A stretch of 36,290 bases of DNA from a virus. Lineage: Duplodnaviria; Caudoviricetes. The notes beneath the pieces are model-generated. The model was not told where the DNA came from. It was given only the letters and a program-made list of their open reading frames with translations, and did no database searches. Within the stretch, counting starts at the first letter, position 1. The number at the start of each line of letters is the position of its first letter. Below, one piece after another: positions 8,022 to 36,083 of the stretch. The stretch is from positions 1 through 36,290 of IMG/VR virus record IMGVR_UViG_3300017747_000923; one strand, given 5' to 3'. Made by a program: the position numbers and the translations under genes.

Positions 8022-11000
8022 ATGCCGATCTTCAAAGTACAGGGTCCGGACGGATACACCTACTCTGTTGAAGCACCGGAGGGCACGTCCCCGGCTTTGT
8101 TGCAACAGGCAATCCAAGAACAGGGATCGGCAGCAAAGCAGCAAGCTCGCAATCGATCGTATACCGAGGCGCTAGTTACTGATCCTGCCGCCTCGATTGT
8201 CAAGGGGCTGGGCAGTCTGGCTCAGTTTCCGGCACAGCTATACGGGTTGGCGACCGGCGACATGGATACGGCCCTGAACAGGGCTGGTGCGGCAGTCAAG
8301 AAGTATGGCGAGGAGATGCAATCTCCCGGCCTGCAGATGCGCGAAGCTCAACGCGCTGCCGCAGTACAGGAAGCAGAGAAGCGCGGCCAGCTGTCGGCGT
8401 TTGGTACTGCGTTTGGCGAGACGGTCAAAGATCCTGCTTTGATCAGTTCGTTTCTGTTGGAACAGGTTCCCCAACTATTAGTTCCGTTTGGTGGGGCCAA
8501 GGTTGCTCAGGGTGCTAGTTTGGCCCGTTCTGCTATGGCCGGTGTCCCGGTTGCGGCTGGTGCTCAGGCAGCTCAAACCGCGGCATACCGTACTGCGCTA
8601 GGTCTGGGCGCTCTGCAACAAGGCGCTGATGTCGGGGCGGAATCTTACGAAGAGCTGTACAAGGAACTAATCAAACAGCAGATTGATCCGGCCACTGCCA
8701 AGCAGATGGCGTTGGATCGGGCTCGAGCTGTTGGCGCGTCAGCGTCTACCATTTCGTTGCTGGCTCAGAAGCTTCCTGGTGCTAAGACTATTGAAGAAGC
8801 AATGGCTAATGTGCCGTTGCGCAAAACAGTTTCACAAACGATTCAGACCCCCGGAGGCACTAGCACAGCCACCAAGTTTGGCGAAACCCGTCTGGGCTCA
8901 GGTATCAAAGGTCTGCTTGGTGAGTCGGCTAGTGAAGTCGCTGAAGAGGTGGGTGGCAAATTTGCCAGTAACGTGGCAATGCAGAACATCAACCCTGAGG
9001 CTTCGCTGGCTTCTGGCCTGGGCGCGACTGCTGCCATGGCGGCTATTGGCGGCGGCACGATGGGTGGTGTGCTCGGTCTGCTGCGCAAACCTGAAGCAGA
9101 AGCGCCGCCTGCAGCCGCTCAAAGTGGAAATATTTCCACTCCTGCTCCGGGTCAACAAGGGCAACTCCCTGCTGGTCAACCCCCTGCGGGGCAATTGCCT
9201 CCTGGTCAGCCTCCTGCGGCGCCTCCGCCTGTTGACGCGATTCAAAAGTTTGTGGATTCGCAGACGGAAGAACAGCAGAAACAGATGTTGGCTGCGCTCG
9301 AGGCCAAGGCTAAAGGTACGCCCGATACACAAGTTGTTGATTCAGATGGCAAGCTCATCACTATCCCTGGTACGCCGCCAGAACTTTTACAACCGGTAGA
9401 GCGTATTGTTTATCAGTTGCTCCGGGATAAGTTTGCCGCGCCGGCAGCACCTACTGCGCCTACGACTACACCGCCTACTGGGGCCGCTCCGACTGCGCCT
9501 ACGGGTGCAGCTCCGACTCCTCCTGGAGAAGCGCCGCCTACTGAACCTACTGGAGAAGCTCCGGTTCCGACTGGCGCAGCGCCGACTCCGCCGACTGAAC
9601 CACCTGCTGAACCGCCCACGACACCTCCTGTAGATACGACTACTCCGCCTACGCAGTTTCCTGTTCCTCCCACACCGGAGCCACCGCCCAGCAATTATTT
9701 GGCTACGCAGCCGCTTGCCGAAAACACCGAGGCGCGGATGTGGCAAGCCAAATCAGGAATGTATGGCGTTGGGCTTTGGGATAACGATGGCAAAGAGTTT
9801 GTTGGCGGTATAACTTTTTGGCCCAATCAACAGAATGCTCGAACAAAATTTGACGAGCTTGTTAGTAAGTCGTTGCCGGCCGCTCCTACTGGAGAAGCAC
9901 CTGCTGTTCAGCCTACGCCTTCTAGATATGAAGTCAAACAACAGTACAAAGATCAAAATGGGGTAGATGTTCCGGCTGGTTGGCAGCTCTTAGAAGATGG
10001 TAATTGGGCGCAAACATTTGCTACTAAAAAAGAAGCTGATAATGTCAAACGCGCTTTAGATGAAAAAGATAATCTAGAAGCACAAATTGCCAAGCTTCGT
10101 CAAAGCCAAGATCCTGGGGTTGGCAATCAGATTGAATCTCTGTTTGCCCGTAAACAGAGGTTAGAAGATTGGTTGTCAGCGCCCCCTTTTAATACTTACC
10201 CGTCAGAATCTGCATTGTCGGGAGGGAAAGAATATCGACCTAAAGTTTCAAGCGCGCCTGCGCCGACCGCTCCTAGCCAACCACCTGTAACGCCTCCTAC
10301 TGGTGCAGCGCCTACTCAGCCGTCTACTACGCCTGCGCAACCATTGACGCCGAACACAATTAGCTCGCGACAACAACGGGCGATTGAAGAGTTTCTTAAT
10401 AATTTAAGAAATGATGGAGGAAGTCGCCTTTGGGGGGCATTGCGTAGCAATCATCCGTTGATTCTAAACAATCGTGTCGCACAACTTCGCAAAGTAACAG
10501 ATGCGTTGGCAAGCGGCATAGATAAATCTGGCAACATTGTTAAATTAACTCCTGATCTAAAAATCGTTTCATCTCCCCCTAATGTTAAAACTCCTGCGGG
10601 TAAGCCTACTGCTCCTACGGCTACCAAGCCGCCTGTCACGCCGCCTGCCGGTGAAGCGCCTGCTGGCAAACCAGCTGTGGAGCCAGGGCCTAATAAGATC
10701 TTTACTGATGATGCCGCGGCCAAAGCGCGTGAGCTTCTACGTCGCAAACTGGGTGGCACTCTTTATTCTGGTGGCCTTGATCCAGAAATTATTCAGGCTG
10801 GTATTACGCTAGCCGGTTATCACATTGAAAAAGGTGCCCGTACTTTTGCGGCTTATGTACGCGCCATGTTTGCTGACCTTGGCGATATTGCCAAGCCGTA
10901 CCTTAAATCATGGTACATGGGCGTCAAGTTTGATCCTCGTGCTGCAGACCTGGAAGGATTAGATTCCAGCGCGGCAGTGGAAGCAGCAGACGTTGATGCC

Positions 11001-14000
11001 ATCCTGGCAGAAGAGCCGGCAGAAGAAACGCCCACTGAAGAAGCTCCCCCGGCGGATGAAAACACTGAACGTGTAAGACTTGCTAACAAGTTCCTCGAGA
11101 CGTTCCAAGCTGGGCAAGGATACAAAACTATTGTCCAGGCTCGTATCGCTGCAGCTGAAGTATTGGGCCGTCCTATTGAGGCTGGTACTGCCGACGCCAA
11201 GCTTGTTGATGAAGCGGTAGAACTTGCTGGTGTTTTGTATGGGCGGGATGTGTTTAACGGCCCTGGTGGAATACTCGATAAATACAACGCTCTGCAGCAG
11301 TTCCAGCAAAATCAAATGCCGTCGCTCAATGTGCGCGATAGCACCAGCATTATCAATCAAGCGTATAGCACTCCATTGCCATTAGCGTTTGCCGCAATTG
11401 AATTGGGCATGGGAGTGAATTCAAATTATCGCAAGTCAGCTACAGTGCTTGAGCCTACTGCTGGGCAAGGCGCTTTGCTTATTGGCACTGACCCTAAAAA
11501 AGCTACGGTCAATGAAATCAATCCTGACCGTGTTGCGGCGTTGCAATCGCAAGGATTTACTGTCACGCAGGAAGATGCGGGCTCGGCGCAATTCAAGCCT
11601 AAGTCAGTTGATGTTGTGCTGGCTAACCCGCCTTATGGCACAAGCGATAAGTCATACACGATTGATGGCTACACGACTACGCATCGTGATCATGCGATCT
11701 CGTTGAATGCGCTTCAAGCTATGAAGGATGATGGTAGCGCTGTGTTGTTGATTGGCGGGCCGAATAAGCTGGATGATGATTCTCGGCAGAAATCCTATCG
11801 TGCTGCATCCAAGCGGTCATTCTTCCACAAGCTGTACAACGAATATAACGTGGTAGATCACTTTACTGTTGCGGGTGATCTATATGCCAAGCAAGGCACG
11901 ACTTATCCCGTTGATGTGATTGTGATTGATGGGCGTCGAGCCAATGCGACCAGACGCAACATGCCGGCTGCTGCGCTGCCCAGGATCATTGAAACTTGGG
12001 ATCAGCTTGAAGGAGTATTGGATGGCTCGAACATTGACATGGGCCCCTTCGGGGGAAGCGAGGCAGCTCCTGGGGGCGATACAGGGACCACCGGGACTGG
12101 CTCTGAACCACAAGGTGTACCTACTCCACCTAGCGGCGAGGGTGCAGGATCTGGCGGAGGAGGCGGACGAAGCGGAGCTAAAACAAGTGGAGAGTCTGCT
12201 GCACCAAGCGGGCCTGCTGGAGGTGCCGCTGGACCGGGAGGAAGCGGGGCTGCTCCTGGTGCAGGAGAACCCATCGATCAAGGAGATATTGAAACAACGG
12301 CAGGTGCCGGGGCTGGGACTGCCAAAGGTGCTGGAGAAGAACAACCCGGAGGCGGCGCAGGTGTACCAGGAGGCGGGACTGCTCCAGTGGGTGGAGCCGC
12401 TGTTGCGGGGGCGCCTCGAGCACGACTGACGGAAGAGCAAACGCAGAAGCTTCAGGTTCCGTATAACAATTTTTCATCCAATAAATCTGTTAAGACATTA
12501 GTTGCGACTAATCATTTAACGCCTATTCAAGAAGCGTTTGCCAATTTGCAGGAAAAGGTTGGCAACATTGATACGTTTGTTCAAACCAAACTGCAATACA
12601 AACCGGAAGAGTTTGCCAAAGCGTTTTCAGCTGAACAGGTCGAAGCCTTAGCGTTGGCGATTTATAACATTGAAGCCAACCGCGGGTTCATCATTGGTGA
12701 TCAGACTGGTATTGGTAAAGGCCGTGTGGTTGCCGGCATGATCCGTTATGCCATGTTGCACAACAAGATCCCGGTGTTTGTCACCCAGATGCCGGATCTG
12801 TATGGCGACATCATGCGGGATTTGAATGACATTGGGATGCCTAATGTCCGCCCGTTGATGACTGACAACAAAGCGTCGGTCCCTTTGGATGCTGAAGCTT
12901 TGCAGTGGTATGGAGAAAAGCAGGAAATCGAAGCTGACATTCTGGAATTGCGCAACAACGCTGATGACTTTGCTGTGGTGGAGTTGGGCGACAAGTTTGC
13001 TGGATTGGAAGGAGATCCCAGAGAGAAAGCTCTTAATGACTTTTTGAGGACTTCTACTAACTCAAATGTCGTAGCGTTGCGCGAACAGATTGCCGAGTTG
13101 AAAGCATCAATCCCTGAGCGTCGTGGCAAGTTTCTGGATACGCCAGACAACAAGCGGCATGAAGCGGCATTAGCTCAGATGATGCAGAACAACTCTTTGG
13201 GTAACTATGACGCCATCTTTACGACTTACAGGCAGATGGACCCCAAGAGTTCCGGTAAAACCAAACGTGACAAGCAACATTTCAAGGTTACTACGCCACC
13301 AGAGTTGTATTTCCGCCATCAGTTTTTAGATCAGTTTATCAATGAGAACACCATGCTAATCATGGATGAGTCTCACAACATTGGTAAAAAATCGCCGCCG
13401 CAACAAAGCACTGGCCGCGGCAACATTGTCCGAGGTTACATTAACAAAGCTGGTGGAGTTTTCTACTCGTCTGCCACTTTTGCCAAAAATGTTGACGTGC
13501 TGGATGCGTACAACAAGACCGACATTGGTATGGCATTCCCTGGTGATCCGCAACGGCTGATTGATTCGTTGTCTTCTATCCCGATGCAACAAGCTGTGTC
13601 GGCTATGTTGGTTGAGGCAACGCAGTATCTCAGACGTGAAAGATCGTATGAAGGTATTTCATATACGAATGAAACCGTCGAAGTAGATCAAGCCGCGGCA
13701 GAAGATCTGTCAACTGCCATGCGTTTGATTGTACAGTTTGACCAAGTTAAGGCTCAGTCGGTTCGCTTTCTACAAGCAGACTTGGACCTGCAAGGTGAAG
13801 TAATGGAGGACGGCTCTATTGCTGTCCCTGAAGTTGAATCCATCAACTTTACTAGCGTTATGCATAACGTACTTGGTACGTTCTTGCTATCGTTGAAGGC
13901 GCGGGAAACTGGCGATCTGGCAATTGCAGCGATAAGGCGTGGTGAGAAACCGGTGATCACGGTTTCAAACACCATGGAAAGCTTTATCATGGAGTATGCA

Positions 14001-17000
14001 GAAGCCAACAACACCAAGATTGGTAATGTGCTTGATGCATCGTTTGCTGATGTGTTGATGCGTTACTTGGAAAAAGTTCGCACCGTTAAGATTGAGTACC
14101 CGAATGGTCAGAAGCTTCCGCATTATTTAACTGATGAAGAGCTGGGGCCTGAAGCACTGAATGCTTATGAAGAAGTGTGGGATTTTATTCGCGCCATGGG
14201 ACGGGACTTGGAGATTCCCATCTCCCCGATTGATGCAATCAAAGAACGTATTGAAGAAGCGGGCTATTCAATAGGTGAGATCACGGGCCGGCAAGCTGTT
14301 GTGTCTACGCAAAACGGCGTGTCGCGTCTTGAGCCGCGCAAAAAATCAGAGCTTAAAACTGCTGGCAAAAAGAATACGATTGCCAAGTTCAACGATGGGG
14401 CTATTGATGCGTTGATCATCAATCGGTCGGGATCAACTGGTTTGTCTATGCATTCGTCTGTGACGTTTGCGGATCAGCGCCGACGCATGATGATCATTGC
14501 CCAGGCTGAAGCAGATATCAACAACCACGTCCAGATGCTAGGTAGGATTAACCGTACTGGTCAAGTCACAGAAGATGGTAAAGCGCCTGATGGAATGCCT
14601 GCCGTCTTTGGTTTGCCGTACTACATCCAGCTTTCAGCGGATGTGCCTATTGAGTTGCGTCCTGCTGCTGTGCTTGCCAACAAAATGGCGGCACTAAGTG
14701 CTAATACTACGGCAGGTAGAAAGACCGCAGCACAGGACGTGAAGACTCCTGACTTTATGAACAAGTACGGGGATCGCGTGGCTGCTGAGTTGGTTGGCAA
14801 CAATGATGAACTTAATGAATTGTTGGGCCGTCCTATCCGAGTTGATGAAGATGGCGATATCAACCCCGTCAATGCCATGGCAAAGGTTACTGGCCGTATT
14901 GGCTTGTTGCCGCTAAAACAACAGAATGAATTGTATGGTCAGCTTGTGGCTGGTTACAACGAACTGTTGAACTTGATGGAGTCGTTAGGCCAAAACGACC
15001 TGGAAGCTAAAGCCAAGCAACTTGATGCCAAGTTGTTAGAGACGGTCGAGTTGCAGCCTGCTGATCAAGGCTCGTCTAGTCCGTTTGCTGCTGCAGTTGT
15101 GTTGCATAAGGTTGATGCCAAGCGATTGACCAAGCCTTTGACCCGTGCCCAAGTGCGAGACTTGATCGACAAAGCTTTGAATGGCAGGACCAAGACGCAG
15201 CGGTTGGAAGAGCAACGCACTGAATTTTTTGTCGGCACTACTCAACAAATTGAAGATTTGACCAAAGCGTTTAATGAGCTAGAAGAAGTAACAGATGCTA
15301 AACGTGCAGCATTTAACAGTCAGATACAAGCTATTCGCGAAGCTCAAAGCATCTTTAAGAATCGGTTGCCGCCAATTGGCGAAACGGTTTCTTTGAATAA
15401 CAACGGCGCCATTTTGTATGGTGTTGTCGTTGATGTTCAGAAAAAGAATCGCGTCAAGAATGCTTCATCGTTAAGTGATTGGGAAGTGAAGTTTGCCGTG
15501 TTGGGCGGGGCAACTAACATTCTTCCGTTGCGCCTTAGCCAAATTGCAAACAATGCTGAAAATCCAGCACTGCAAGAAGACAAAATAGTTTGGAGTTTTG
15601 AACAAACTACTCCGGCCATTACGGAAGATGGGTCGGGTATTGAACAGATCCCGATCGTTGATGCATTTGATCGAGCGCAAAACCGTGCTCGAGAAACGCG
15701 CTACATCATTACCGGCAACTTGCTACGCGGCAAACAAGCTGCAGGCGGTGGCAATCTGGTCAGCTATACGGACGATCAAGGCAATCTGCTGCAAGGCTTC
15801 TTGATGCCTGTTGGGTTTGATGCTGCCAAGCTGATTGCACAGCAAGCCGGCGCTATTATGTCCCCGCAAGCTGCCATGGAGTTGGCCGATCTAGATGGTG
15901 AGGTAGTGGACAAACTCACCATGGGGAATGTGATTAAATTCAAGAAATATGGGTCACAGTATCAGCTTGAGTTTACACAAAGCGGAGTAGGCAGAAGTAT
16001 TGTTAAAGACTTCAAGTCAACATACTTTGCCAGTGTCGGACAAAAGATGCGTGGTGTTCTTAGCCCAGAAACGGCTACAGAAATCTTAACCAAGATTCTT
16101 AGTGGCAATGGGTACGGAATTAATCTGGTCGCCAATATCAATGATGCACACACTAAACGTCTGATTGATGCCCGCGGTAAACCAGCTACCGTGCGGACAT
16201 TGTCGGTGGTTCCGATTGAGCCTGTCACTCAACGAGTCAGGCCGCAGACTAAGCGACGCATCAAGTTCCTGAATCAGCAGCATGATGATGGAGTTATTGG
16301 TGACACTGCCTTCATTGAAGGGGTCAAGACCGCGCTAGACAGGGATGCAACAGCCCAGGAAGAGAAGGAACCTAAAGAGCGGGTCCGCGGGGCTGATTAC
16401 ATCCGTGAGCGTTTACTTCGGGCACGGCGTCAAGGTTTGCTATCAGATGATGGCGTTGAACTGGCGTTGTGGTTCATTGGTCAGAATCCGTCCCTGGTAG
16501 ACCGGCTGGGTATCAGCATTCGGGAAAGCAAGGAAGAGGGTGTTGCTGGCGAATACAACAGCATCTCCGAGATCATGCGCTTGGTTCCGCAAGCAGCCAA
16601 TGATTTCACTGTAGTCCACGAGATATTGCATCACCTGGAACGGATGATGCCGCCGGATATTCAAAAGGCTATCCGTAATGAATGGGTGATGCAGTTCACT
16701 GCGGCTAAACGTCGGGCTGCTACGTCTAATCAAGAAAAGTTCTTTGATCTTTTAAGTCAGTACCACTTTGGCGATCCCATGTTGGCTGGGGAACATATGC
16801 TGAAGATGGCTAAGGAGATGATCCAGAACGGTGATGTGCCGCTAGAGTTCTATCAATACTTCAATCCCTCTGAGTTCTGGGCCGTTAACGGTTCGAGGAT
16901 TGTGGGCAACCGGTTTGTCAACGGTGAGTCGTTGATTGCCAGGATGAAGCAGTGGCTTAAAGAGTTTATGCAGAAGATCAAGTCGCTGTTTAACTTGCCT

Positions 17001-19922
17001 TCTGATGCGTCGCTCATCCGAGCCCTGGACAGTCTGGCAAAAGGTGATGGGCAATTCAACACGCCGCTGATGCTTTTCCAGGGGTCTTTTGCCCAAAGCG
17101 TTGTGCCGACTCGTGAAGCGGTGATCGATGCGGCTCAGAAGTTCCTGCAGAAACGTAAGCCATTGAACCCTGCAGACTTTGATGGCGTCACTGATGAGTT
17201 TATGCAGAAGGCGCAGCCAATCTATGCGCCGCAACGTGCCACGGTCATCGACAAAGTGGCGCAGATGAAGGATGGGTTCTGGCGGCGACTGGCGCAGGGT
17301 ATTGCGGATCAGTACCGGACTATCAAGGACTACAGCGAACATGCCTACATGCTGGCTCGGATGTCCCGTACTGTAGACGGGGCGCTCGAGGGACTGCTGT
17401 TCCATGGTCAAGTGTTCTTGAATGACGGGGCTTTGGACATCCGTGAAAACAGCAAGGGTCTGTTTGAAGTTCTGCAGCCGGTTGGTGCCGAGGTGGATCG
17501 GTTCCTGATGTGGATGGCACTGAATCGTGAAGCGCAATTGCTGAGGACCGGGCGGCAATCCAAGATGGATGACATGCCGTTCCTAATCAAAAACCGCGAT
17601 GAGTTGGTTGCCGGGGACTTGGACGGTGAGCCCAGGTTGGCGTTGTATACCAAGGTGCGCAATGAGCTGAACAAGCTCAACCGGTCAGTCCTGCAGGTAG
17701 CTCTGGCCCAAGGGCTCATCACCTCGACGGAACGGGAGATTGCCAATACCTGGAGTCGTACTGATCTGTCAGATGAGCAGAAAGCTGCTCGAGTCCTGGA
17801 CCTGGAGCAGAACCCGATTGGCTATGAGCGGTTTGCCAATGACATCTGGTACGTCCCGTTCTATCGCGAGATGGAAGACGGCATGTTGTCTGCAGCCATG
17901 GATTCTTCCGGCCTGCCTAACCAGTACTTCTCGCACAAGATTGAAGGTGGCGACAGTCCGTTTGGCGATTTGTTGGAGAACATCGTCAAGAACTGGAATC
18001 ACATTCTGTCGGCGTCGATGAAGGATCGCGCAGCGTTTGAAGTAGTTAAAGCCGGCATGGATAAGAACGCTGTGATACCTAGCCTGAAGCCTCAGTACGT
18101 TATGCGGAACAACAAGATCTATCTGCGTTCCAATGATGAGCTAGTTGGAGATGGGTCGTTGAAAGGCTGGATGACTACTCGCCGTGATGGTGATGTCGCA
18201 TCTGTCAAGATAATGATTGAGGGCATCCCGGCTTACGTCCAGGTGGTAGATCCCATGTTGTTTGAGGCCATCTCATCGATTGGCTACATGGGGCCCAAGT
18301 CCAAGTTTGTTAGCGCCATGCGGGACTTTAAGAACCTGCTGCAGTACGGCGTGACGATTGGCCCGCCTTTCAAAGTACGCAACTTGTTTCGCGATTCGAT
18401 CCATGCGACTGCCATCTCCGGTGGCGGCTTAAGTTTTAACCCATGGACTAACGTGATCCAGGGTTGGAAAGCTTCTGATAAGTCCAACCCGCGGTTTATC
18501 TCTGCTCTCGCCGGCGGCGCAGTCTTTAACTTTGGCTCGATGTATGAAGGCGATCAGGCCAAGCTGGTCAAGCGTCTGGTGAAACAAGGTGTACCGGAAG
18601 ACAGCATTCTGAACACCACAGATCGGGTAAAGAATGGCCTGATGACGGCGTGGCAGAAGTACCAGGATTGGGGCAACAAGTCGGAAGCCGCCAACCGGAT
18701 GGCGTTGTATAACCAGCTGCGCGATAAAGGTTACAACCATCTTGAAGCGTCGTTTATGGCGCGTGACCTGCTGGATTTCTCCATGCAAGGGTCATGGGGT
18801 GCCATGCGGTTCCTGACGCAGACCGTCCCGTTCCTGAATGCTCGTGTCCAGGGTCTGTATAAGCTTGGTCGTGATGGCATCAGCCCAACTGTTCGGGTGT
18901 TCTATAACACGATGACAGGCCAGCCGAGTGAACAATCGGACAAAGAAAAGGCTACGTCATTTACCACGGTTACGTCTGCGGTTGTTCTCGCCTCCTTGGC
19001 TCTGTACTTTGCCTTCAAGGATGACGAGAAGTTCAAGAAACGTGATGCCTGGGACCGTGACAACTTCTGGTGGTTCAAGCTTCCTGGCATGGAGTACGCG
19101 CTGAGGATTCCCAAGCCGTTTGAGATCGGAGCGTTTGGTACCCTGGCCGAGCGTGTTGCTGAACAGATCTTTGATCAGGGCGCAGAAGGTAAACAGTTTG
19201 AGGATACCCTGCGTCGGATGCTATCTGATACGTTTGCCTTGAACCCCACGCCTCAGATGTTCAAGCCGCTGGTTGATCTGTACTCCAATAAGGATAGCTT
19301 TACTGGTGCCCCGGTTGAGTCGGCCGGCATGGAGCGGTTGTCTAAGGAAGAGCGCAAGACGGACAACACCAGTCCTCTGGCTATCGCGGTGAGCGGGATT
19401 GCCAATCTGTTCCTGCCGACCAAAGCGGAGATGTCACCGGTGCAAGCAGAGTACGCGATCAAAGCTTACTTTGGCTGGCTGGGCGGGACGATCGCCTGGG
19501 CATCTAAACATGCCATGTCTCCCTTCCAGGAAGGTGCCTACCCGTCGGAGAAGTGGATGGACATTGCCAGCGTCGGGTTCATCAAGTCGCTGCCGTCTAC
19601 TCAGTCCGAGTACGTCACGTCCTTCTACGAGAACGCAAAGGGTATCAGCGAAGCGTATGCGGATATGCGTCACTACGCGGCGATCGGCGATAGCAGCAAG
19701 GTGCAGGCTATCCTGGAAGACAAGGGTGACAAGGTTGCGCTGGCTAAGATGTACGATCAAACGTCTAAGCAGATGGCAAAGGTTCGCCAATACATCCGGG
19801 TTGTGACTGAGGATACGTCGATGAGCGCAGAAGACAAGCGCGAGAACATCGACCGCTCCAAGCTGCTGATCATCGAGCTGGCGCGGCAGGCAGAAGAAGT
19901 CCGCAAGTCTATGAAGAAGTAA
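8022..19922 (+). CDS. Giant polyvalent DarB-like virion protein (3966 aa): N6-adenine DNA methyltransferase, Strawberry-notch SF2 helicase, HExxH metallopeptidase, LPD38-like C-terminus
   Basis: MTase motif I VLEPTAGQG (~11445-11471) and motif IV NPPY (11625-11636). Helicase motifs GDQTGIGKGR (~12696), MDESHN, SSATF, SGSTGLSMH, QMLGRINRTGQ. VHEILHH (~16614-16634) plus SEFWA. PKPFEIG (~19110) in the C-terminal region. Confidence 0.85.
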   Translation: MPIFKVQGPDGYTYSVEAPEGTSPALLQQAIQEQGSAAKQQARNRSYTEALVTDPAASIVKGLGSLAQFPAQLYGLATGDMDTALNRAGAAVKKYGEEMQSPGLQMREAQRAAAVQEAEKRGQLSAFGTAFGETVKDPALISSFLLEQVPQLLVPFGGAKVAQGASLARSAMAGVPVAAGAQAAQTAAYRTALGLGALQQGADVGAESYEELYKELIKQQIDPATAKQMALDRARAVGASASTISLLAQKLPGAKTIEEAMANVPLRKTVSQTIQTPGGTSTATKFGETRLGSGIKGLLGESASEVAEEVGGKFASNVAMQNINPEASLASGLGATAAMAAIGGGTMGGVLGLLRKPEAEAPPAAAQSGNISTPAPGQQGQLPAGQPPAGQLPPGQPPAAPPPVDAIQKFVDSQTEEQQKQMLAALEAKAKGTPDTQVVDSDGKLITIPGTPPELLQPVERIVYQLLRDKFAAPAAPTAPTTTPPTGAAPTAPTGAAPTPPGEAPPTEPTGEAPVPTGAAPTPPTEPPAEPPTTPPVDTTTPPTQFPVPPTPEPPPSNYLATQPLAENTEARMWQAKSGMYGVGLWDNDGKEFVGGITFWPNQQNARTKFDELVSKSLPAAPTGEAPAVQPTPSRYEVKQQYKDQNGVDVPAGWQLLEDGNWAQTFATKKEADNVKRALDEKDNLEAQIAKLRQSQDPGVGNQIESLFARKQRLEDWLSAPPFNTYPSESALSGGKEYRPKVSSAPAPTAPSQPPVTPPTGAAPTQPSTTPAQPLTPNTISSRQQRAIEEFLNNLRNDGGSRLWGALRSNHPLILNNRVAQLRKVTDALASGIDKSGNIVKLTPDLKIVSSPPNVKTPAGKPTAPTATKPPVTPPAGEAPAGKPAVEPGPNKIFTDDAAAKARELLRRKLGGTLYSGGLDPEIIQAGITLAGYHIEKGARTFAAYVRAMFADLGDIAKPYLKSWYMGVKFDPRAADLEGLDSSAAVEAADVDAILAEEPAEETPTEEAPPADENTERVRLANKFLETFQAGQGYKTIVQARIAAAEVLGRPIEAGTADAKLVDEAVELAGVLYGRDVFNGPGGILDKYNALQQFQQNQMPSLNVRDSTSIINQAYSTPLPLAFAAIELGMGVNSNYRKSATVLEPTAGQGALLIGTDPKKATVNEINPDRVAALQSQGFTVTQEDAGSAQFKPKSVDVVLANPPYGTSDKSYTIDGYTTTHRDHAISLNALQAMKDDGSAVLLIGGPNKLDDDSRQKSYRAASKRSFFHKLYNEYNVVDHFTVAGDLYAKQGTTYPVDVIVIDGRRANATRRNMPAAALPRIIETWDQLEGVLDGSNIDMGPFGGSEAAPGGDTGTTGTGSEPQGVPTPPSGEGAGSGGGGGRSGAKTSGESAAPSGPAGGAAGPGGSGAAPGAGEPIDQGDIETTAGAGAGTAKGAGEEQPGGGAGVPGGGTAPVGGAAVAGAPRARLTEEQTQKLQVPYNNFSSNKSVKTLVATNHLTPIQEAFANLQEKVGNIDTFVQTKLQYKPEEFAKAFSAEQVEALALAIYNIEANRGFIIGDQTGIGKGRVVAGMIRYAMLHNKIPVFVTQMPDLYGDIMRDLNDIGMPNVRPLMTDNKASVPLDAEALQWYGEKQEIEADILELRNNADDFAVVELGDKFAGLEGDPREKALNDFLRTSTNSNVVALREQIAELKASIPERRGKFLDTPDNKRHEAALAQMMQNNSLGNYDAIFTTYRQMDPKSSGKTKRDKQHFKVTTPPELYFRHQFLDQFINENTMLIMDESHNIGKKSPPQQSTGRGNIVRGYINKAGGVFYSSATFAKNVDVLDAYNKTDIGMAFPGDPQRLIDSLSSIPMQQAVSAMLVEATQYLRRERSYEGISYTNETVEVDQAAAEDLSTAMRLIVQFDQVKAQSVRFLQADLDLQGEVMEDGSIAVPEVESINFTSVMHNVLGTFLLSLKARETGDLAIAAIRRGEKPVITVSNTMESFIMEYAEANNTKIGNVLDASFADVLMRYLEKVRTVKIEYPNGQKLPHYLTDEELGPEALNAYEEVWDFIRAMGRDLEIPISPIDAIKERIEEAGYSIGEITGRQAVVSTQNGVSRLEPRKKSELKTAGKKNTIAKFNDGAIDALIINRSGSTGLSMHSSVTFADQRRRMMIIAQAEADINNHVQMLGRINRTGQVTEDGKAPDGMPAVFGLPYYIQLSADVPIELRPAAVLANKMAALSANTTAGRKTAAQDVKTPDFMNKYGDRVAAELVGNNDELNELLGRPIRVDEDGDINPVNAMAKVTGRIGLLPLKQQNELYGQLVAGYNELLNLMESLGQNDLEAKAKQLDAKLLETVELQPADQGSSSPFAAAVVLHKVDAKRLTKPLTRAQVRDLIDKALNGRTKTQRLEEQRTEFFVGTTQQIEDLTKAFNELEEVTDAKRAAFNSQIQAIREAQSIFKNRLPPIGETVSLNNNGAILYGVVVDVQKKNRVKNASSLSDWEVKFAVLGGATNILPLRLSQIANNAENPALQEDKIVWSFEQTTPAITEDGSGIEQIPIVDAFDRAQNRARETRYIITGNLLRGKQAAGGGNLVSYTDDQGNLLQGFLMPVGFDAAKLIAQQAGAIMSPQAAMELADLDGEVVDKLTMGNVIKFKKYGSQYQLEFTQSGVGRSIVKDFKSTYFASVGQKMRGVLSPETATEILTKILSGNGYGINLVANINDAHTKRLIDARGKPATVRTLSVVPIEPVTQRVRPQTKRRIKFLNQQHDDGVIGDTAFIEGVKTALDRDATAQEEKEPKERVRGADYIRERLLRARRQGLLSDDGVELALWFIGQNPSLVDRLGISIRESKEEGVAGEYNSISEIMRLVPQAANDFTVVHEILHHLERMMPPDIQKAIRNEWVMQFTAAKRRAATSNQEKFFDLLSQYHFGDPMLAGEHMLKMAKEMIQNGDVPLEFYQYFNPSEFWAVNGSRIVGNRFVNGESLIARMKQWLKEFMQKIKSLFNLPSDASLIRALDSLAKGDGQFNTPLMLFQGSFAQSVVPTREAVIDAAQKFLQKRKPLNPADFDGVTDEFMQKAQPIYAPQRATVIDKVAQMKDGFWRRLAQGIADQYRTIKDYSEHAYMLARMSRTVDGALEGLLFHGQVFLNDGALDIRENSKGLFEVLQPVGAEVDRFLMWMALNREAQLLRTGRQSKMDDMPFLIKNRDELVAGDLDGEPRLALYTKVRNELNKLNRSVLQVALAQGLITSTEREIANTWSRTDLSDEQKAARVLDLEQNPIGYERFANDIWYVPFYREMEDGMLSAAMDSSGLPNQYFSHKIEGGDSPFGDLLENIVKNWNHILSASMKDRAAFEVVKAGMDKNAVIPSLKPQYVMRNNKIYLRSNDELVGDGSLKGWMTTRRDGDVASVKIMIEGIPAYVQVVDPMLFEAISSIGYMGPKSKFVSAMRDFKNLLQYGVTIGPPFKVRNLFRDSIHATAISGGGLSFNPWTNVIQGWKASDKSNPRFISALAGGAVFNFGSMYEGDQAKLVKRLVKQGVPEDSILNTTDRVKNGLMTAWQKYQDWGNKSEAANRMALYNQLRDKGYNHLEASFMARDLLDFSMQGSWGAMRFLTQTVPFLNARVQGLYKLGRDGISPTVRVFYNTMTGQPSEQSDKEKATSFTTVTSAVVLASLALYFAFKDDEKFKKRDAWDRDNFWWFKLPGMEYALRIPKPFEIGAFGTLAERVAEQIFDQGAEGKQFEDTLRRMLSDTFALNPTPQMFKPLVDLYSNKDSFTGAPVESAGMERLSKEERKTDNTSPLAIAVSGIANLFLPTKAEMSPVQAEYAIKAYFGWLGGTIAWASKHAMSPFQEGAYPSEKWMDIASVGFIKSLPSTQSEYVTSFYENAKGISEAYADMRHYAAIGDSSKVQAILEDKGDKVALAKMYDQTSKQMAKVRQYIRVVTEDTSMSAEDKRENIDRSKLLIIELARQAEEVRKSMKK
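9123..9140. repeat. Perfect 18-bp palindrome AGTGGAAATATTTCCACT, copy 1 (intragenic)
   Basis: Self-complementary; 22-bp identity AAAGTGGAAATATTTCCACTCC (9121-9142) with 29426-29447. Confidence 0.95.
9440..10670 (+). repeat. Pro/Thr-rich PTG(A/E)AP linker repeats within the giant protein
   Basis: Repeated PTGAAP/PTGEAP peptides; CCTACTGGAGAAGC occurs at both 9546-9559 and 9885-9898. Confidence 0.8.
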
Positions 19923-23225: not shown

Positions 23226-23423
23226 TCACTCTCCTATCCTGCTTAGACAAACCCCGTTCTCAAACCGGGGAGGCCATGTGTAAACCACCCGGGCGGTTGG
23301 CGGATCTAGGGCAATCTGCAATCTACGTTTACACGATTGACATGGTGGCAGTGGCTTACCTGCCTTCTCATTGTTTAGCGTTTGTCCGTGGCAGCGGGCG
23401 ATGTCATAAGCCAGCATATTCAT
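23226..23423 (-). CDS. Small Cys-rich hypothetical protein (DIARCHG...CQSCKR)
   Basis: ATG at 23423 in ATGA overlap with the Rap1a-like gene. Confidence 0.6.
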   Translation of the reverse strand: MNMLAYDIARCHGQTLNNEKAGKPLPPCQSCKRRLQIALDPPTARVVYTWPPRFENGVCLSRIGE

Positions 23424-23749
23424 GTTGGATTCCCCCGGGATTTCTGGCAGGGCCACACCATCTTCATCACCTTATTCACTAAGACATCAGCGGTCTGATG
23501 TCTCTCGGCAGGAGTGTTGGTCAAGTAGTTCTTCACCATATCCAACAGTTGCCCAGCTCTTACGTTCGGTGGGGGGCAGTGGACTACCCCCATGCCCATG
23601 TCTGATACCCCGGTGATGTAACCCAGAGCAACACCCCGGCTGAAAGAATCCTGAGCGTTGATGTCACTCAGCAGGTCATTACCATCCTTGAACTCGGCAT
23701 GTGCGGTAAGGCACAGGCTCAATGTTGTGATACCGATTAAGCGTTTCAT
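23420..23749 (-). CDS. Rap1a/Tai-family (T6SS amidase immunity-like) secreted protein
   Basis: Signal peptide ending AHA; GNDLL...GYITGVSD...CPP..V..GQL.D.V..YL...P..RH..A..LV......WPC matches the Rap1a pattern. Confidence 0.8.
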   Translation of the reverse strand: MKRLIGITTLSLCLTAHAEFKDGNDLLSDINAQDSFSRGVALGYITGVSDMGMGVVHCPPPNVRAGQLLDMVKNYLTNTPAERHQTADVLVNKVMKMVWPCQKSRGNPT

Positions 23750-23769
23750 CTCGTCCCTTGGTTGTGATG

Positions 23770-26702: not shown

Positions 26703-27564
26703 TTTGGTTCCTCAAATAGGTTTGATACTGGTCACAGAATTCGCTGACCTGACAATAGTTGGCGCAGCGAACACGTTCTCCCTGACGTACTTCGATGATG
26801 TGGCCGGGTGTCAGGGCTTCCTCGGCTTCCTCCTTGGTTGCAAATACCTTCTTGGCTTTGAGCCCTCCTTCTTTCTTCAGTGCGTACATAGTCGGACGTT
26901 CCCACATGTCCGCGGGCGAACACTCGGGCAGCTGGTCACCCATGGACTGAGCAAACATGGCGTCTGAGTGCATCGAGATACGGTCTTCGACAAACTCTTG
27001 CCGCGTATCAAACGGCCAGATAGCGATATCGATCACCACCACCGGAGCCTGGGGATACTCAGGCTTAACCTTCGCCTCTCGAGCAGCCCAATCCCGGACG
27101 ATCGCTACGATCTGCAGCTTCTTCACGTTCTGGCGCTTGACCTTCTCCACCAGCCACGCATAGATGTTCAACTGACGGTGCCAGTCTTCCTTCTCATTCA
27201 TCACCGTCCAGGCGCTGGTCACCTTGTAGTCGCTGATGATGACGCCGTCTTCTTCCACTTCCTGCAGGTCGATAGCACCCGATACAGACCAGCCGCTGAC
27301 CTCGGCATGAAGACGCTGCTCGACAACGTGGTGCTCATCCCGGCCATGCTCGAGCACGTTATGCACGGCAGACCCAAACAAGGACCACACCATCTCCGCG
27401 GCATCCTGCTCCAGCTTGTCCCAGTGCTCACGCTTGAGCTGCACAATCCGAGGCGCAGTCAACAACTCGGTTGCAGAGATGTTGGCTTTGCCCTTAGAGT
27501 ACGTCGGACGATGCAGCACATTGACAATCGTCTGCGGAAGGTTGTGTTTGTTGGTGATCTTCAA
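26677..27564 (-). CDS. PD-(D/E)XK Cas4-like exonuclease
   Basis: G.AVH..LE, SGAIDL, ISDYKVT, QLNIY, C-terminal RCANYCQVSEFC. TTG start at 27564 with AAGGAG RBS. Confidence 0.85.
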   Translation of the reverse strand: MKITNKHNLPQTIVNVLHRPTYSKGKANISATELLTAPRIVQLKREHWDKLEQDAAEMVWSLFGSAVHNVLEHGRDEHHVVEQRLHAEVSGWSVSGAIDLQEVEEDGVIISDYKVTSAWTVMNEKEDWHRQLNIYAWLVEKVKRQNVKKLQIVAIVRDWAAREAKVKPEYPQAPVVVIDIAIWPFDTRQEFVEDRISMHSDAMFAQSMGDQLPECSPADMWERPTMYALKKEGGLKAKKVFATKEEAEEALTPGHIIEVRQGERVRCANYCQVSEFCDQYQTYLRNQNDHDSTAS

Positions 27565-27797
27565 TGTGTCTGCTCCTTCTCTGCGTCCTTGTATAGTTGC
27601 CACAAGCGCCTCAACATTTCATGCAATCTTTCTTCTTCAATTTCGCAGATAGAACATAACGTGATCAACAACATCTGGGCGGCAACCACTGCCGTCCGCG
27701 GACCTTCTGTACACTCTTGCAGCGTTCTCAGAAGTGCGGTGCAAACCTCTGCACAACGCTCCCATTCGTCTGCCAAGTCCTGAAAATCTTCTCGCAA
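27561..27797 (-). CDS. Hypothetical protein, first gene of the leftward operon
   Basis: TAGGAG RBS, TTG start, TTGA overlap with the exonuclease. Confidence 0.6.
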   Translation of the reverse strand: MREDFQDLADEWERCAEVCTALLRTLQECTEGPRTAVVAAQMLLITLCSICEIEEERLHEMLRRLWQLYKDAEKEQTH

Positions 27798-27828
27798 GAT
27801 AGTTCTCCTATCCGATAAATGGGATGCG

Positions 27829-27858
27829 AATGTAACAGGTAGGTTGGCAGGCAGTCAA
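27829..27858 (-). promoter_or_regulatory. Sigma70-type promoter for the leftward recombination operon
   Basis: On the minus strand: TTGACT, 18-nt spacer ending TGT, then TACATT. Confidence 0.6.
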
Positions 27859-27901: not shown

Positions 27902-28192
27902 GTGCGTCGAGCTGCACGGGTTGACAATAACGCGCATGAGATTGTGGATGCGCTGCGTAAGGCCGGGGCGTATGTCCGGGTGATCTCTCAGGGGGAGGGG
28001 TTGCCGGATCTGTTGGTGGGATACCGCGGCTGCACCCTTCTGATTGAGATCAAGGACGGGGCGAAACCCCCATCCCAGCAGCGGCTTACCGAGGCAGAGC
28101 AGAAGTTCTTTGACGAGTGGACGGGTGGTCCCTTGTTGAAGGCTAACTCGGTAGACGCAGCGATAGAAGCCCTGAGGAATGTGGTACGATGA
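27902..28192 (+). CDS. VRR-NUC / PD-(D/E)XK endonuclease (resolvase-like)
   Basis: RAARVD.N..EIV.ALR..GA.V, GLPDLLVGY.G...LIEIKDG; GGAGG RBS. Confidence 0.85.
   Translation: MRRAARVDNNAHEIVDALRKAGAYVRVISQGEGLPDLLVGYRGCTLLIEIKDGAKPPSQQRLTEAEQKFFDEWTGGPLLKANSVDAAIEALRNVVR
28180..28190 (+). promoter_or_regulatory. Extended -10 promoter for a putative small RNA
   Basis: TGTG-G-TACGAT at the 3' end of the VRR-NUC gene; no clear -35. Confidence 0.45.
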
Positions 28193-28195
28193 AGT

Positions 28196-28252
28196 CTGTT
28201 CCTCCTCCCTTGGTTGTTGCCTTACAGGGCTCTGTGCAGCCCTGTTTTTTTT
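28196..28252 (+). ncRNA. Putative ~55-nt sRNA with anti-Shine-Dalgarno seed
   Basis: C/U-rich TTCCTCCTCCCTTGGTTGTTG between an extended -10 and an intrinsic terminator; seed is complementary to phage RBSs at 23754-23765 and 36035-36044. Confidence 0.5.
28224..28252 (+). terminator. Rho-independent terminator
   Basis: ACAGGGCT-ctgtgc-AGCCCTGT followed by 7 more T. Confidence 0.85.
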
Positions 28253-28265
28253 GGGTAGAGAACTA

Positions 28266-28553
28266 ATGAAGCGACTGGCTGAACCCGAGATGGATGCCGC
28301 GATCCTTGGCCCTGCGATGATCTGGCGCGGCAATCAGATGGTCAGAGTGCTGGTATATGACGCCAGCCGTATCGTAGAGATCCTGATGGACCGTGATGGC
28401 ATGGACCACGACGAAGCCTGGGAGTACTTTGATTTCAACATCGAGTGTGCCTGGGTGGGGGTGGATACCCCGGTGTACGTCTACACAAATACAGACTGGC
28501 AGGAATGGGATGACGATCCCGAGCCGGTTGACATTCAAAAATCAGACGAGTAG
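28266..28553 (+). CDS. Conserved phage hypothetical protein
   Basis: DAAILG...LVYD...IVEILM.RDGM..DEA.EYFDFNI..AWVG..TP family pattern; ATG at 28266. Confidence 0.75.
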   Translation: MKRLAEPEMDAAILGPAMIWRGNQMVRVLVYDASRIVEILMDRDGMDHDEAWEYFDFNIECAWVGVDTPVYVYTNTDWQEWDDDPEPVDIQKSDE

Positions 28554-28556
28554 ACT
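28528..28556 (+). promoter_or_regulatory. Near-consensus sigma70 promoter for the replication operon leader
   Basis: TTGACA, 17-nt spacer, TAGACT. Confidence 0.8.
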
Positions 28557-28563
28557 TCGATCT

Positions 28564-28660
28564 GTTGGCGTGAGAACCGACGATTGCAAGGCCGCTTACT
28601 CATGCTCCCGCCCGTCGAAAGATGGGTTCTCACCGGGGGCAGCAGTAAGCGGCTTTTTCG
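28564..28660 (+). ncRNA. c4/CI-like antisense RNA with upstream target hairpin
   Basis: Outer stem 28588-28600/28644-28656 ending in a U-run; inner stem 28603-28610/28634-28641; GAAA hairpin 28611-28626; unpaired TTCTCAC (28627-28633) complementary to loop GTGAGAA (28570-28576). Confidence 0.7.
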
Positions 28661-28980
28661 TTTCCACGCCTTCCGTACTCCGCACGTTAGTAAGGGCCTG
28701 AATGGGCTGCGCGGAAGGAAACACACGGCACCGATCACCCCCGGTAGTCCGTACTGACCTGTCAGCGAGGGATCAGTGTAGTCCTGGGTAACAAGGGTGG
28801 TAGACAAGGCCCAGGATGAATAGAATCGCTGCCTCGAGGGAAGCCTGGGGCGCTAGGAGTAGGGATCTAGCCGCCTGGGGCGGGGGAAGGAGAAGGCTCC
28901 ACCCCTTGGGCGACTCAGAAACATGTATGCTGGCAGGTAGGTTGGTCTGGGATATAACAGGTAACTTAAAAGGAAAAACG

Positions 28981-29778: not shown

Positions 29779-31248
29779 ATGCTGGCCTTGCGGGACTATC
29801 AGAACAAGACGCTCGATGCCTTGCGCGATGGATTTCTGGCTGGGTCTCGAGCGCAAGTGTTGTACGCCCCTACGGGGGCGGGCAAAACCGAGATGGCGAT
29901 TGCTCTTTTGCAGGCAACAAAGCAGAAGGGCAATCGGGCTGCGATGTTGTTGGATAGGATCATCTTGTGTGACCAAACCAGCCAACGGTTGCAGCGGTAT
30001 CAGATTGACCATGGAGTGCTTCAGTCGGGGCACTGGCGATACCGGCCGGCTGAACACATTCAAGTGTGCTCGGCCCAGACGCTTGAGAAACGTGGCTCAT
30101 TCCCTGGCTTGAACCTGCTGATCGTGGACGAGTGCCACGCTATGCGCGAGCAGACGGTCGAGTTCATCAAGTCGAACCCAGACATCAAAGTCATCGGCCT
30201 GTCCGCCACCCCGTTCACCAAAGGATTGGGTCGGGTGTATGACCGTGTGATCTCAACTGTCACAACGTCGCAGCTGGTAGAGCAGAAGGTGCTGGTCCCG
30301 CTGCGGGTGTTCATTGCCAAAGAGATCGACATGACCGGGGCCAAGAAGGTTGCCGGCGAATGGTCCCAGGCAGAAGCCTCGAGCCGCGGGCAGAAGATCA
30401 CCGGTGACATCGTCCAGGAGTGGGTATCCAAGACCACCGCAATCTTTGGCGGGCCTCGCAAGACGATTGTGTTCTGTGCAGGCGTGAACCATGGGGCTGA
30501 TCTCGCGAGAAAGTTTGCCGAGCAGGGCTACAACTTTGTGGCGATCAGCTACAAGGATGACGATCAGTACAAGCGCGACGTGATTGAGGAGTTCAGCAAG
30601 CCTGACACGACAATGCACGGGCTGATCGCTACTGACATCTTGACCAAGGGCTTCGATGTCCCGGACGTGATGATCGGGATATCCGCGCGGCCATTCTCAA
30701 AGTCCTTGTCTTCGCACATCCAACAGATGGGCAGGGTAATGCGTGGGCATCCTGGCAAAGAGTTCGCCCTGTGGCTAGACCACTCGGGCAACTACCTGCG
30801 GTTCCGGGAAGACTGGGAAGAGGTGTACGGCAGCGGCGTCCACGGTTTGGATGATGGCAAGGAGAAGGCGAAGAAGGAACCGACTGACAAGGAGAAGGCT
30901 GAGGCCAAGTGTCCGGCCTGCGGAGCGTTGTGGTCCTCTGGTACGGACATCTGCTCCCACTGTGGCTATGTTAGGCCGCGAAAGAGTCTGGTTCAGGAAG
31001 TTCCGGGTGAGATGGAGGAGCTCAAGCCCCGCAACGTCAACGCCATGACCAAGCAGCAGTGGTGGTCGATGATCTACTACAACACGTTGCACAAGGGTTG
31101 GAGCCGCGGGCGGGCGTCGCATACGTTCCGAGAAAAGTTTGGGCACTGGCCGAATGGGTTGAAAGATTTGCCGGTTATGCCTAATCGCGAGGTTGAAGGG
31201 TACATCCGTAGCCGGATGATAGCCTACATAAAAGGGAGGAGACGATGA
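29779..31248 (+). CDS. SF2 DExH helicase (RadD/YejH-like) with C-terminal zinc finger
   Basis: LRDYQ, APTGAGKT, DECH, SAT, LTKGFD, QQMGRVMR, CPAC...CSHC. Confidence 0.92.
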   Translation: MLALRDYQNKTLDALRDGFLAGSRAQVLYAPTGAGKTEMAIALLQATKQKGNRAAMLLDRIILCDQTSQRLQRYQIDHGVLQSGHWRYRPAEHIQVCSAQTLEKRGSFPGLNLLIVDECHAMREQTVEFIKSNPDIKVIGLSATPFTKGLGRVYDRVISTVTTSQLVEQKVLVPLRVFIAKEIDMTGAKKVAGEWSQAEASSRGQKITGDIVQEWVSKTTAIFGGPRKTIVFCAGVNHGADLARKFAEQGYNFVAISYKDDDQYKRDVIEEFSKPDTTMHGLIATDILTKGFDVPDVMIGISARPFSKSLSSHIQQMGRVMRGHPGKEFALWLDHSGNYLRFREDWEEVYGSGVHGLDDGKEKAKKEPTDKEKAEAKCPACGALWSSGTDICSHCGYVRPRKSLVQEVPGEMEELKPRNVNAMTKQQWWSMIYYNTLHKGWSRGRASHTFREKFGHWPNGLKDLPVMPNREVEGYIRSRMIAYIKGRRR

Positions 31249-33164: not shown

Positions 33165-33176
33165 AAGGAGCTCCTT

Positions 33177-34330: not shown

Positions 34331-34527
34331 TGTTTGCTCCATGTTTTGATGCCGCCGTCGATGTGCGGCTGGATTGCATCCGCAGCGGCGCGGATGATGT
34401 TCGAGGCAGCTCGGGCGCGGACCCATCCGAGGCGGGTCCGGCGCTCTAGCCATGGGGCCCCGGAACCCACCGCCCGGAGTCGGTAGTCCCCGGACCTGAT
34501 CAGGTCGATCAGCATCGAGGCCGTCAC
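34327..34527 (-). CDS. Hypothetical protein
   Basis: GTGA overlap with the upstream gene; AAGGA RBS. Confidence 0.5.
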   Translation of the reverse strand: MTASMLIDLIRSGDYRLRAVGSGAPWLERRTRLGWVRARAASNIIRAAADAIQPHIDGGIKTWSKQ

Positions 34528-34814
34528 AGCATTTCCTTCGGAACGATCAGGCCGTAGGCGCGGATGATCGTCGCGGCCTGCGCCGGCAACGACATGATGC
34601 CGTCGTAGTCGGTCAGGGCCCCGGCATCGTCGAACCACAGGCCGATCTCTTCTGTCGTGTCGAGGTCCGGAATGTCCCATTCGATGCAGCCCCTGCGCCG
34701 ATCGTCGGCAAGGTAGAGGTCCATCCTGCTCGGGTGCTGCCCGAGCTCGTGTGATCCCCAGCTGCCGTGCCGCAGCAGCGAGGCCGTGAAGCGTATGGTG
34801 CCGACGTGTTCCAT
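34524..34814 (-). CDS. Conserved phage hypothetical protein (IGLWFD...LTDYDG..SLP)
   Basis: GGAG RBS before ATG 34814. Confidence 0.7.
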   Translation of the reverse strand: MEHVGTIRFTASLLRHGSWGSHELGQHPSRMDLYLADDRRRGCIEWDIPDLDTTEEIGLWFDDAGALTDYDGIMSLPAQAATIIRAYGLIVPKEML

Positions 34815-34832
34815 GGTGGTCTCCGTGGTTGT

Positions 34833-35608: not shown

Positions 35609-35625
35609 GTTTCTCTCCTTGGTGT

Positions 35626-35649: not shown

Positions 35650-36024
35650 TCAGAGGGTGATCTTGGCGGTCAGCAGGCAATTTTTAACGGCCTCCTGCAC
35701 TTGCTCGGTCAGGTCAACGTCTCTCATGAGTCTCTCCCCGTCGAGGTAGTCATGCAGATCCTCGTTGCCCATCCAATCCTCGATGCGTGAGCCGACCAGG
35801 TCATCAAGCGTTGCGCCAAGCTGCTTGGCGATCTCCTCTCGAGCCTTGCGCTCGATCAGATCCTCCAGCGCGAACCCGTTGAGCTCCTCGAGCTGCGCTA
35901 CACGTGTCACTAGGACGCCATTGATCCCCTCGAGCTTCGCGATGCGCTCCTCCAGCGGCTTGACGGCCTCGGTTACAGCTGCGGTCAGCGCGTCGGTCAG
36001 GATCTTGTTCAGGTCGATGTTCAT
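35650..36024 (-). CDS. Acidic coiled-coil hypothetical protein, first early gene
   Basis: ACAACCAAGGAGAG leader; 124 aa. Confidence 0.75.
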   Translation of the reverse strand: MNIDLNKILTDALTAAVTEAVKPLEERIAKLEGINGVLVTRVAQLEELNGFALEDLIERKAREEIAKQLGATLDDLVGSRIEDWMGNEDLHDYLDGERLMRDVDLTEQVQEAVKNCLLTAKITL

Positions 36025-36083
36025 GCTGTGCTCTCCTTGGTTGTGTCTGTCTGTCGAAAACTGCGGTCCTACACCCCTCTATG

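Follow-up and report, generated by a model that had tools for sequence, protein, structure and literature searches.

Does the end of a small phage nuclease gene double as the gene of a regulatory RNA that holds a mirror image of a translation start? The question arises from the complete virus record IMGVR_UViG_3300017747_000923, a stretch of 36,290 bases (hereafter the window) that represents a genome fragment with a completeness of 55%. Where the nuclease gene ends, an extended -10 element, a pyrimidine-rich run and an intrinsic terminator follow one another closely, and the original prediction, made from the letters of the window, took them for a small RNA (sRNA) of about 55 nt that would block the Shine-Dalgarno (SD) sequences of the phage's own leftward genes. 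Our analysis leads us to a modified version of this idea, to which we give a probability of about 0.6: the unit would be the gene of a trans-acting sRNA of about 55 nt whose main targets are the phage's own non-structural mRNAs and whose effect is to damp their translation. That a discrete RNA of some kind is made from the unit we regard as highly probable from its sequence features.

The unit and its predicted targets in the window

The window phage is tailed and carries its structural genes on the plus strand. A leftward block contains exonuclease, Erf and SSB genes; the nuclease gene diverges from this block and is followed by ParB-like, helicase and primase genes and then by a second leftward block. 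The same layout recurs, within each fragment's reach, in 26 related records that were fetched whole. The earlier label of VRR-NUC for the nuclease found no confirmation, as the protein matches a PHROG endonuclease family (phrog_93, E=1e-5) and, weakly, Pfam Hjc, a weak match that is seen in 7 of 25 members of the nuclease family. No close phage or prophage match to the nuclease came with a named host, and a search with the Erf homologue named none; a betaproteobacterial host is our guess, made from the unit's likeness to RNAs of that group. Elsewhere in the window, the plus-strand gene at 8022-19922 encodes a 3966-aa protein with DarB-like, endolysin-like and methyltransferase-like matches.

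Every coordinate and every match in the original prediction is correct in the sequence, and the pyrimidine-rich run, the hairpin and the T-run all lie where it had placed them (Table 1). The extended -10 is likewise in its claimed position, but it is embedded in the final codons of the nuclease gene, stop included, and lacks a good -35. A consensus promoter scan of the window did not list the hexamer at 28185-90, which is weak by itself, since 10.7% of other TGA gene ends score equally well. The unit had also been described as free of ORFs, which is not strictly true: a 25-codon plus-strand ORF (28189-28266) crosses it, as does a 124-codon in-frame extension of the next gene.

Table 1. Features of the window that bear on the predicted sRNA and its candidate targets
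Feature	Position	Strand	Basis or remark
RBS of Rap1a-domain gene 23420-23749 (predicted target)	23754..23765	-	12-nt exact complement; -25.6 kcal/mol, best of 48 leaders
Leftward promoter (27858-27829) and leader of first leftward gene (27561-27797)	27798..27858	-	promoter scan; duplex with window seed -13.6 kcal/mol
Small PD-(D/E)XK-type nuclease gene (VRR-NUC/Hjc-like)	27902..28192	+	phrog_93; predicted sRNA promoter in its 3' end
Extended -10 element, predicted sRNA promoter	28182..28190 (TG 28182-83, hexamer 28185-90)	+	overlaps nuclease gene end and stop
Predicted sRNA of about 55 nt	28197..28252	+	inferred start 28197-28198
Single-stranded seed with two overlapping anti-SD cores	28199..28217	+	predicted unpaired, p=0.99 at core; exact complements
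Intrinsic terminator, 8-bp stem and U-tract	28224..28252 (hairpin 28224-28245, T-run 28246-28252)	+ only	fold z=-2.8
RBS of primase gene starting 31245 (predicted target)	31232..31241	+	10-nt exact complement; -24.6 kcal/mol
Leader of gene 34524-34814 (weaker predicted target)	34821..34832	-	-21.3 kcal/mol
Leader before ATG 35608 (weaker predicted target)	35609..35623	-	7-nt exact core; -22.3 kcal/mol
Leader of gene 35650-36024, second leftward block (predicted target)	36035..36044	-	10-nt exact complement; -22.2 kcal/mol

The best partners of the window's seed are the Rap1a, primase, 32875, 35608, 36024 and 34814 leaders, with the qualification that duplex energies ignore accessibility and that gene starts come from our own SD-weighted caller. 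As had been claimed, positions 28206-28217 are the exact complement of the Rap1a RBS at -5 to -16 of its gene. This complement is beyond chance, in that shuffling that left the anti-SD core in place produced one of at least 12 nt to a leftward leader 5 times in 2000, and full shuffling did so 9 times in 2000. The match between 28208-28217 and the leader of gene 35650-36024 holds as well, whereas the description of that gene as the first early gene is only plausible in a fragment of this completeness. Weaker matches that had been reported are also real, comprising 7 nt at 35617, 6 nt at 33173 and, for the leader near 34821, a predicted duplex. The primase RBS, which had gone unnamed, is a rightward target, so the predicted targets are not leftward only. 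Two further observations concern this part of the genome. The gene at 23420-23749 (minus strand) encodes a Rap1a immunity domain (Pfam Rap1a, E=3.5e-15) within the phage non-structural block, and a homologue is found in the related genome G024 (phrog_3870). A split 8+9-nt complement of the seed, which may be due to chance or may be a coding-region site, falls within the coding region of the exonuclease gene at 26827-26840 (minus strand), some 130 nt short of the following start.

A conserved family of related loci

Relatives of the nuclease were collected from viral and metagenome collections (the best 80 of 521 and the best 80 of 367), and of 208 loci, with 8 too short and duplicates dropped, 124 were distinct. 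For further counts we used a 122-locus set, in which three mis-centred seeds were kept and from which two loci without the unit, L240 and L254, were left out; these two are close nuclease relatives (63-68% identity) and constitute natural negatives. A -10 hexamer of the form TAnnnT is present at the nuclease stop in 120 of the 124 distinct loci, a terminator lies 3' of the hexamer in 119, and an anti-SD core stands between the two in 110. The base 7 nt downstream of the -10 is a purine in 102 of 120 loci, and the units range in length from 47 to 99 nt.

Promoter strength was scored with weights from the E. coli sigma70 consensus against about 2000 other gene ends with matched stop codons. Of 43 distinct loci scored in this way, 40 rank within the highest 5%, and in most of them a -35 is present at 17 bp; L022, L048 and the window itself (10.7%) rank lower. 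Because the loci are related and partly constrained by codons, these scores lend support to a promoter and are not proof of one. The terminator stem covaries among 42 sequences: each of its 8 pairs has changed at both partners, and 94% of the cells hold paired bases. A covariance model built from 42 copies (R1) recognises the unit in 81 of another 100 loci, some of them close to training rows; in 32 loci whose nucleases are distant, taken from the 39 loci L049-L087, it has no match at E<=0.1. A search of viral contigs for the 19-base seed pattern in its exact form returned nothing, and the family is therefore recognised by position and anatomy and not by seed identity. In predicted folds, the core of the seed is at least half unpaired in only 67 of the 122 loci, and a 5' hairpin, absent from the window copy, appears in 25 of the 122. 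On the strength of these sequence comparisons, the unit is a real and conserved element of a large family that spans uncultured phages.

What the seeds have in common is their form. In 54 of 122 copies, the anti-SD is preceded at a distance of 3-14 nt by an anti-AUG, compared with a mean of 10.7 and a maximum of 22 in shuffles. The seed can be described as the reverse complement of a translation start, with an A-rich leader, an SD, a spacer and often an AUG.

The surroundings of the unit hold additional features. In the window, a sigma70-like promoter (10 of 12) in the plus-strand region 28528-28980 is followed by about 420 nt without a called gene, up to the ParB-like gene, and an Rfam search of this region returned no match; in the relatives, one recurring motif lies 3' of the terminator in 31 of 122 loci and another in 41 of 122. 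The region 3' of the terminator is possibly a second conserved non-coding RNA. A 12-base motif within the leftward promoter (27836-27847) is repeated, together with a shorter copy, upstream of the ParB-like gene (28934-28965), and a role as operator is possible. Among the relatives, a GroES-like co-chaperonin gene (L091:7834-8196, in genome G001) adjoins the portal gene.

Seeds and leaders vary together

Covariation of seed and leaders in related phages had been proposed as a check on the original prediction, and we found it. Duplex energies between seeds and leaders were double-centred, and own and foreign pairs were compared by cluster across 27 genomes. For the five best leftward leaders, the phage's own RNA is favoured in 18 of 18 clusters (permutation p=5e-5). 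The aim is not strictly leftward, as had been supposed, given that adjacent rightward genes favour their own RNA in 11 of 13 clusters; for the other rightward leaders, which belong to structural or late genes, the count is 8 of 17 (p=0.38). By class, most of the signal comes from the first leftward gene (-3.9 kcal/mol, 14 of 17 clusters), with some own-pair signal at leaders that follow intergenic gaps and none at long structural genes.

A larger set comprised the 85 loci with a callable first gene (37 of the 122 have none), in 57 rows and 31 clusters. Here, the first leftward gene prefers its own RNA in 25 of the 31 clusters, by -3.7 kcal/mol. Among 39 disjoint nearest-neighbour pairs, the own combination is better in 27 and worse in 10 (p=2e-4); for pairs with at least 80% identity the corresponding counts are 14 and 6 (p=0.03), and for very close sisters, with nuclease DNA at least 90% identical, they are 6 and 3 of 10, which is not significant. 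A large part of the pairing is generic, as an ungapped match score of at least 7 is reached by 50 of 85 own pairs and also by 2944 of 6464 foreign pairs. When whole-body duplexes are considered, only 5 of 27 genomes show a difference in medians between leftward and rightward leaders at p<0.05.

The main partner in the family is the first leftward gene beside the nuclease. The original prediction had not named this gene, and the window's own seed pairs with it weakly, ranking 33 of 57. Several unrelated gene families occupy the first leftward position across loci, including a family of three-helix proteins of about 75 aa in 38 of 85 loci, and a relative yields a confident three-helix structure model (pLDDT 89). 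For the first leftward protein, a PHROG search returned no family and a Foldseek viral search no match at E<=0.001; a feature score of 0.84 and a best Z of 5.9 hint weakly at dimers of the YejL/DUF1414 type, a link that is not established.

Explanations that do without a separate pairing RNA account for part of these observations. The unit begins directly 3' of the nuclease stop, whose codon often provides the TA of the -10, a -35 can arise from Leu/Ile-Glu/Ala codons, and the window's promoter is weak, all of which would suit a unit that is no more than the 3' UTR of the nuclease mRNA with its terminator and acts at most as a cis brake between the 5' and 3' UTRs of that mRNA. Yet in 40 of 43 loci the promoter outscores gene ends that share its stop codon, the -10 shifts its position where the stop is TGA, and the purine at +7 recurs in 102 of 120. 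The brake itself was rejected because the seed does not covary with the nuclease's own leader (own RNA favoured in 13 of 31 clusters, p=0.43, and in 9 of 17 in the smaller set), and we consider this explanation quite unlikely. A different possibility is that the seed is the RBS of a minus-strand gene, relic or live, or a direct repeat of a leftward leader that recombination maintains in the DNA, without any pairing of RNA. In 54 of 122 copies, the minus strand does show an SD, a spacer and an ATG in this order, several leaders in the window are also preceded by hairpins, and G-U pairs outnumber A-C pairs by 18 to 11 in a ratio that is the same in foreign pairs, so wobble counts do not separate RNA pairing from a DNA repeat. 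However, the ORFs that start from these ATGs are spread over three frames (25, 16 and 13), span 3-119 codons and are missing from the 68 of 122 copies without an ATG, which led us to reject a minus-strand gene. The relic RBS of a lost gene, which the original prediction had named among the outcomes that would count against it, likewise finds no conserved opposite-strand ORF in the family. The U-tract and promoter face the plus strand only, and a relic would not keep its frame of promoter and terminator across nucleases that are 57-85% identical; taken as a whole, this possibility is improbable. The least probable reading is a gene for a 25-residue peptide at 28189-28266, translationally coupled to both neighbours through an ATGA overlap with the nuclease stop and a TAATG overlap with the next start. 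We rejected this candidate on finding an ATG ORF of at least 20 codons starting at this place in only 26 of 122 loci, and the terminator would cut the ORF before its stop.

It could also be that the sRNA is real and aimed mainly at host mRNAs, as an RNA that imitates or descends from NmsR and the double-hairpin 'toxic' sRNAs of Betaproteobacteria, with the fit to phage leaders reflecting no more than the SD style of the host. A model built from phage copies only has matches in 14 of 121 genomes of Cupriavidus's order (including G077, an unpublished genome) against 2 of 121 in Luteibacter's order, the control. Of nine matches examined, six are RF02278, four of them above its cut-off. In the opposite direction, RF02278 gives matches below its cut-off at the unit in 6 of 37 phage records (best 30.2 bits against a cut-off of 50), none of at least 50 bits in the 37 and none at all in the window. 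The window's core resembles these host cores in a by-eye comparison, and overexpression of Burkholderia RNAs of the RF02278 type slows growth (excerpts of PMC5688073). A host SD style should touch all phage genes, however, and the restriction of the fit to non-structural leaders, mostly at the one gene position and with none at long structural genes, therefore counts against this explanation, which we judge unlikely.

A proposed mechanism and its relation to known RNAs

In the reading that we favour, an sRNA directed mainly at the phage's own non-structural mRNAs, host sigma70 polymerase would transcribe a short, stable RNA from the promoter in the nuclease gene end. The RNA would accumulate after infection, probably stabilised by Hfq through its U-tail, a mode of binding that is established for such sRNAs (excerpts of PMC5362039). 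Its unpaired seed would occlude the SD and AUG of non-structural leaders and lower their translation, such that a burst from the constitutive-type leftward promoter would become a pulse of early expression. In most relatives, the main target would be the leading cistron of the recombination operon, which encodes a small helical protein, exonuclease, Erf and SSB; in the window phage, it would be the leaders of the Rap1a gene, the primase gene and the second block. The RNA would, as a likely by-product, also pair with numerous host mRNAs.

The original prediction also cast the RNA as a substitute for a protein repressor. Searches that covered 75 of the 81 called proteins of G001, the closest relative (99% complete), and 56 of the 97 proteins of G024 gave no integrase, CI or antirepressor; two weak 'transcriptional regulator' matches occur in G024. 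With no repressor found, a role in lysogenic immunity is unsupported. A more speculative extension, which we think rather doubtful, is that the RNA would fit the leader of the first leftward gene as a key fits a lock, with both evolving rapidly, and once accumulated would silence the recombination and early operon of the phage itself and of co-infecting close kin, defining RNA-coded superinfection exclusion groups in phages without a protein repressor, and that the RNA was taken from a host Betaproteobacterial anti-SD sRNA family and re-aimed.

Phage sRNAs with a known mechanism are few. Where phage RNA acts on phage genes, the examples described are for the most part cis-antisense RNAs, directed at one regulator of a temperate phage (excerpts of PMC12197685). 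More than 120 natural seed-leader pairs with covariation in the family make it directly testable whether apparently non-integrating phages time their early programme, or exclude their kin, by one RNA that mirrors a translation start. The family also ties phage regulation to the poorly understood 'toxic' sRNAs of Betaproteobacteria.

At gathering score, Rfam has no match in the window, and its best weak matches there are ncS16 (RF02866; E=0.082, 20.6 bits against a cut-off of 48) and SorX. The P1/P7 c4 RNA acts in trans near an RBS, and C4 RNA controls an antirepressor within a temperate immunity circuit; C4 antisense RNA (RF01695) has no match in the window at gathering score and none at E<=10 in 28050-28400. 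In the literature that we searched by title and abstract opening, no description of this phage sRNA element was found. The main text of PMC10690425 does not mention it and the searchable supplements do not contain the motif, and the element may be among the 10,006 candidates of that study.

Several characterised RNAs are comparable in part. P22 sar, lambda OOP, aQ and 24B_1 of Stx phage are phage RNAs that pair with and block the phage's own genes, each of them directed at one regulator in a temperate phage and mostly in cis (excerpts of PMC12197685, which also describe VpdS and PreS as phage RNAs). In contrast, the RNA described here is encoded in trans, has more than one predicted target and mirrors a translation start in full, and in the phages that carry it no integrase or CI has been detected. 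Burkholderia ncS16 resembles the predicted unit in that it is transcribed from a separate start site within a gene's 3' UTR (excerpts of PMC5688073), but it is chromosomal and lies behind ompA. The Neisseria NmsRA/B RNAs repress several mRNAs at the SD through UC-rich anti-SD seeds, as reporter fusions and seed mutants have shown (excerpts of PMC5362039). Those excerpts present NmsRA/B as host metabolic regulators, tandem siblings with three stem-loops and invariant seeds, in which an anti-AUG that covaries with targets does not feature. As with NmsR-type RNAs, a promoter and a terminator of its own frame the non-coding phage unit, judging by conservation, although the window's promoter is weak.

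The closest likeness is to the Betaproteobacteria toxic sRNAs of RF02278 and the Burkholderia double-hairpin RNAs, which are 57-92 nt long and combine a CU-rich unpaired anti-RBS stretch with an intrinsic terminator (excerpts of PMC5688073 and PMC4603805); one RNA from Burkholderia, ncS27, represses through an anti-SD-type seed (excerpts of PMC5688073). Covariance models of RF02278 and of the phage family detect each other in both directions. The two nevertheless differ, in that the RF02278 RNAs are chromosomal with predicted metabolic and transport targets (excerpts of PMC5688073 and PMC4603805), while the seeds of the phage copies diverge fast and track phage leaders, and the window copy has no 5' hairpin. 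Our analysis thus points to a phage unit that is a member of this group neither by score nor by form, and that by its predicted features works like the anti-SD sRNAs of Betaproteobacteria.
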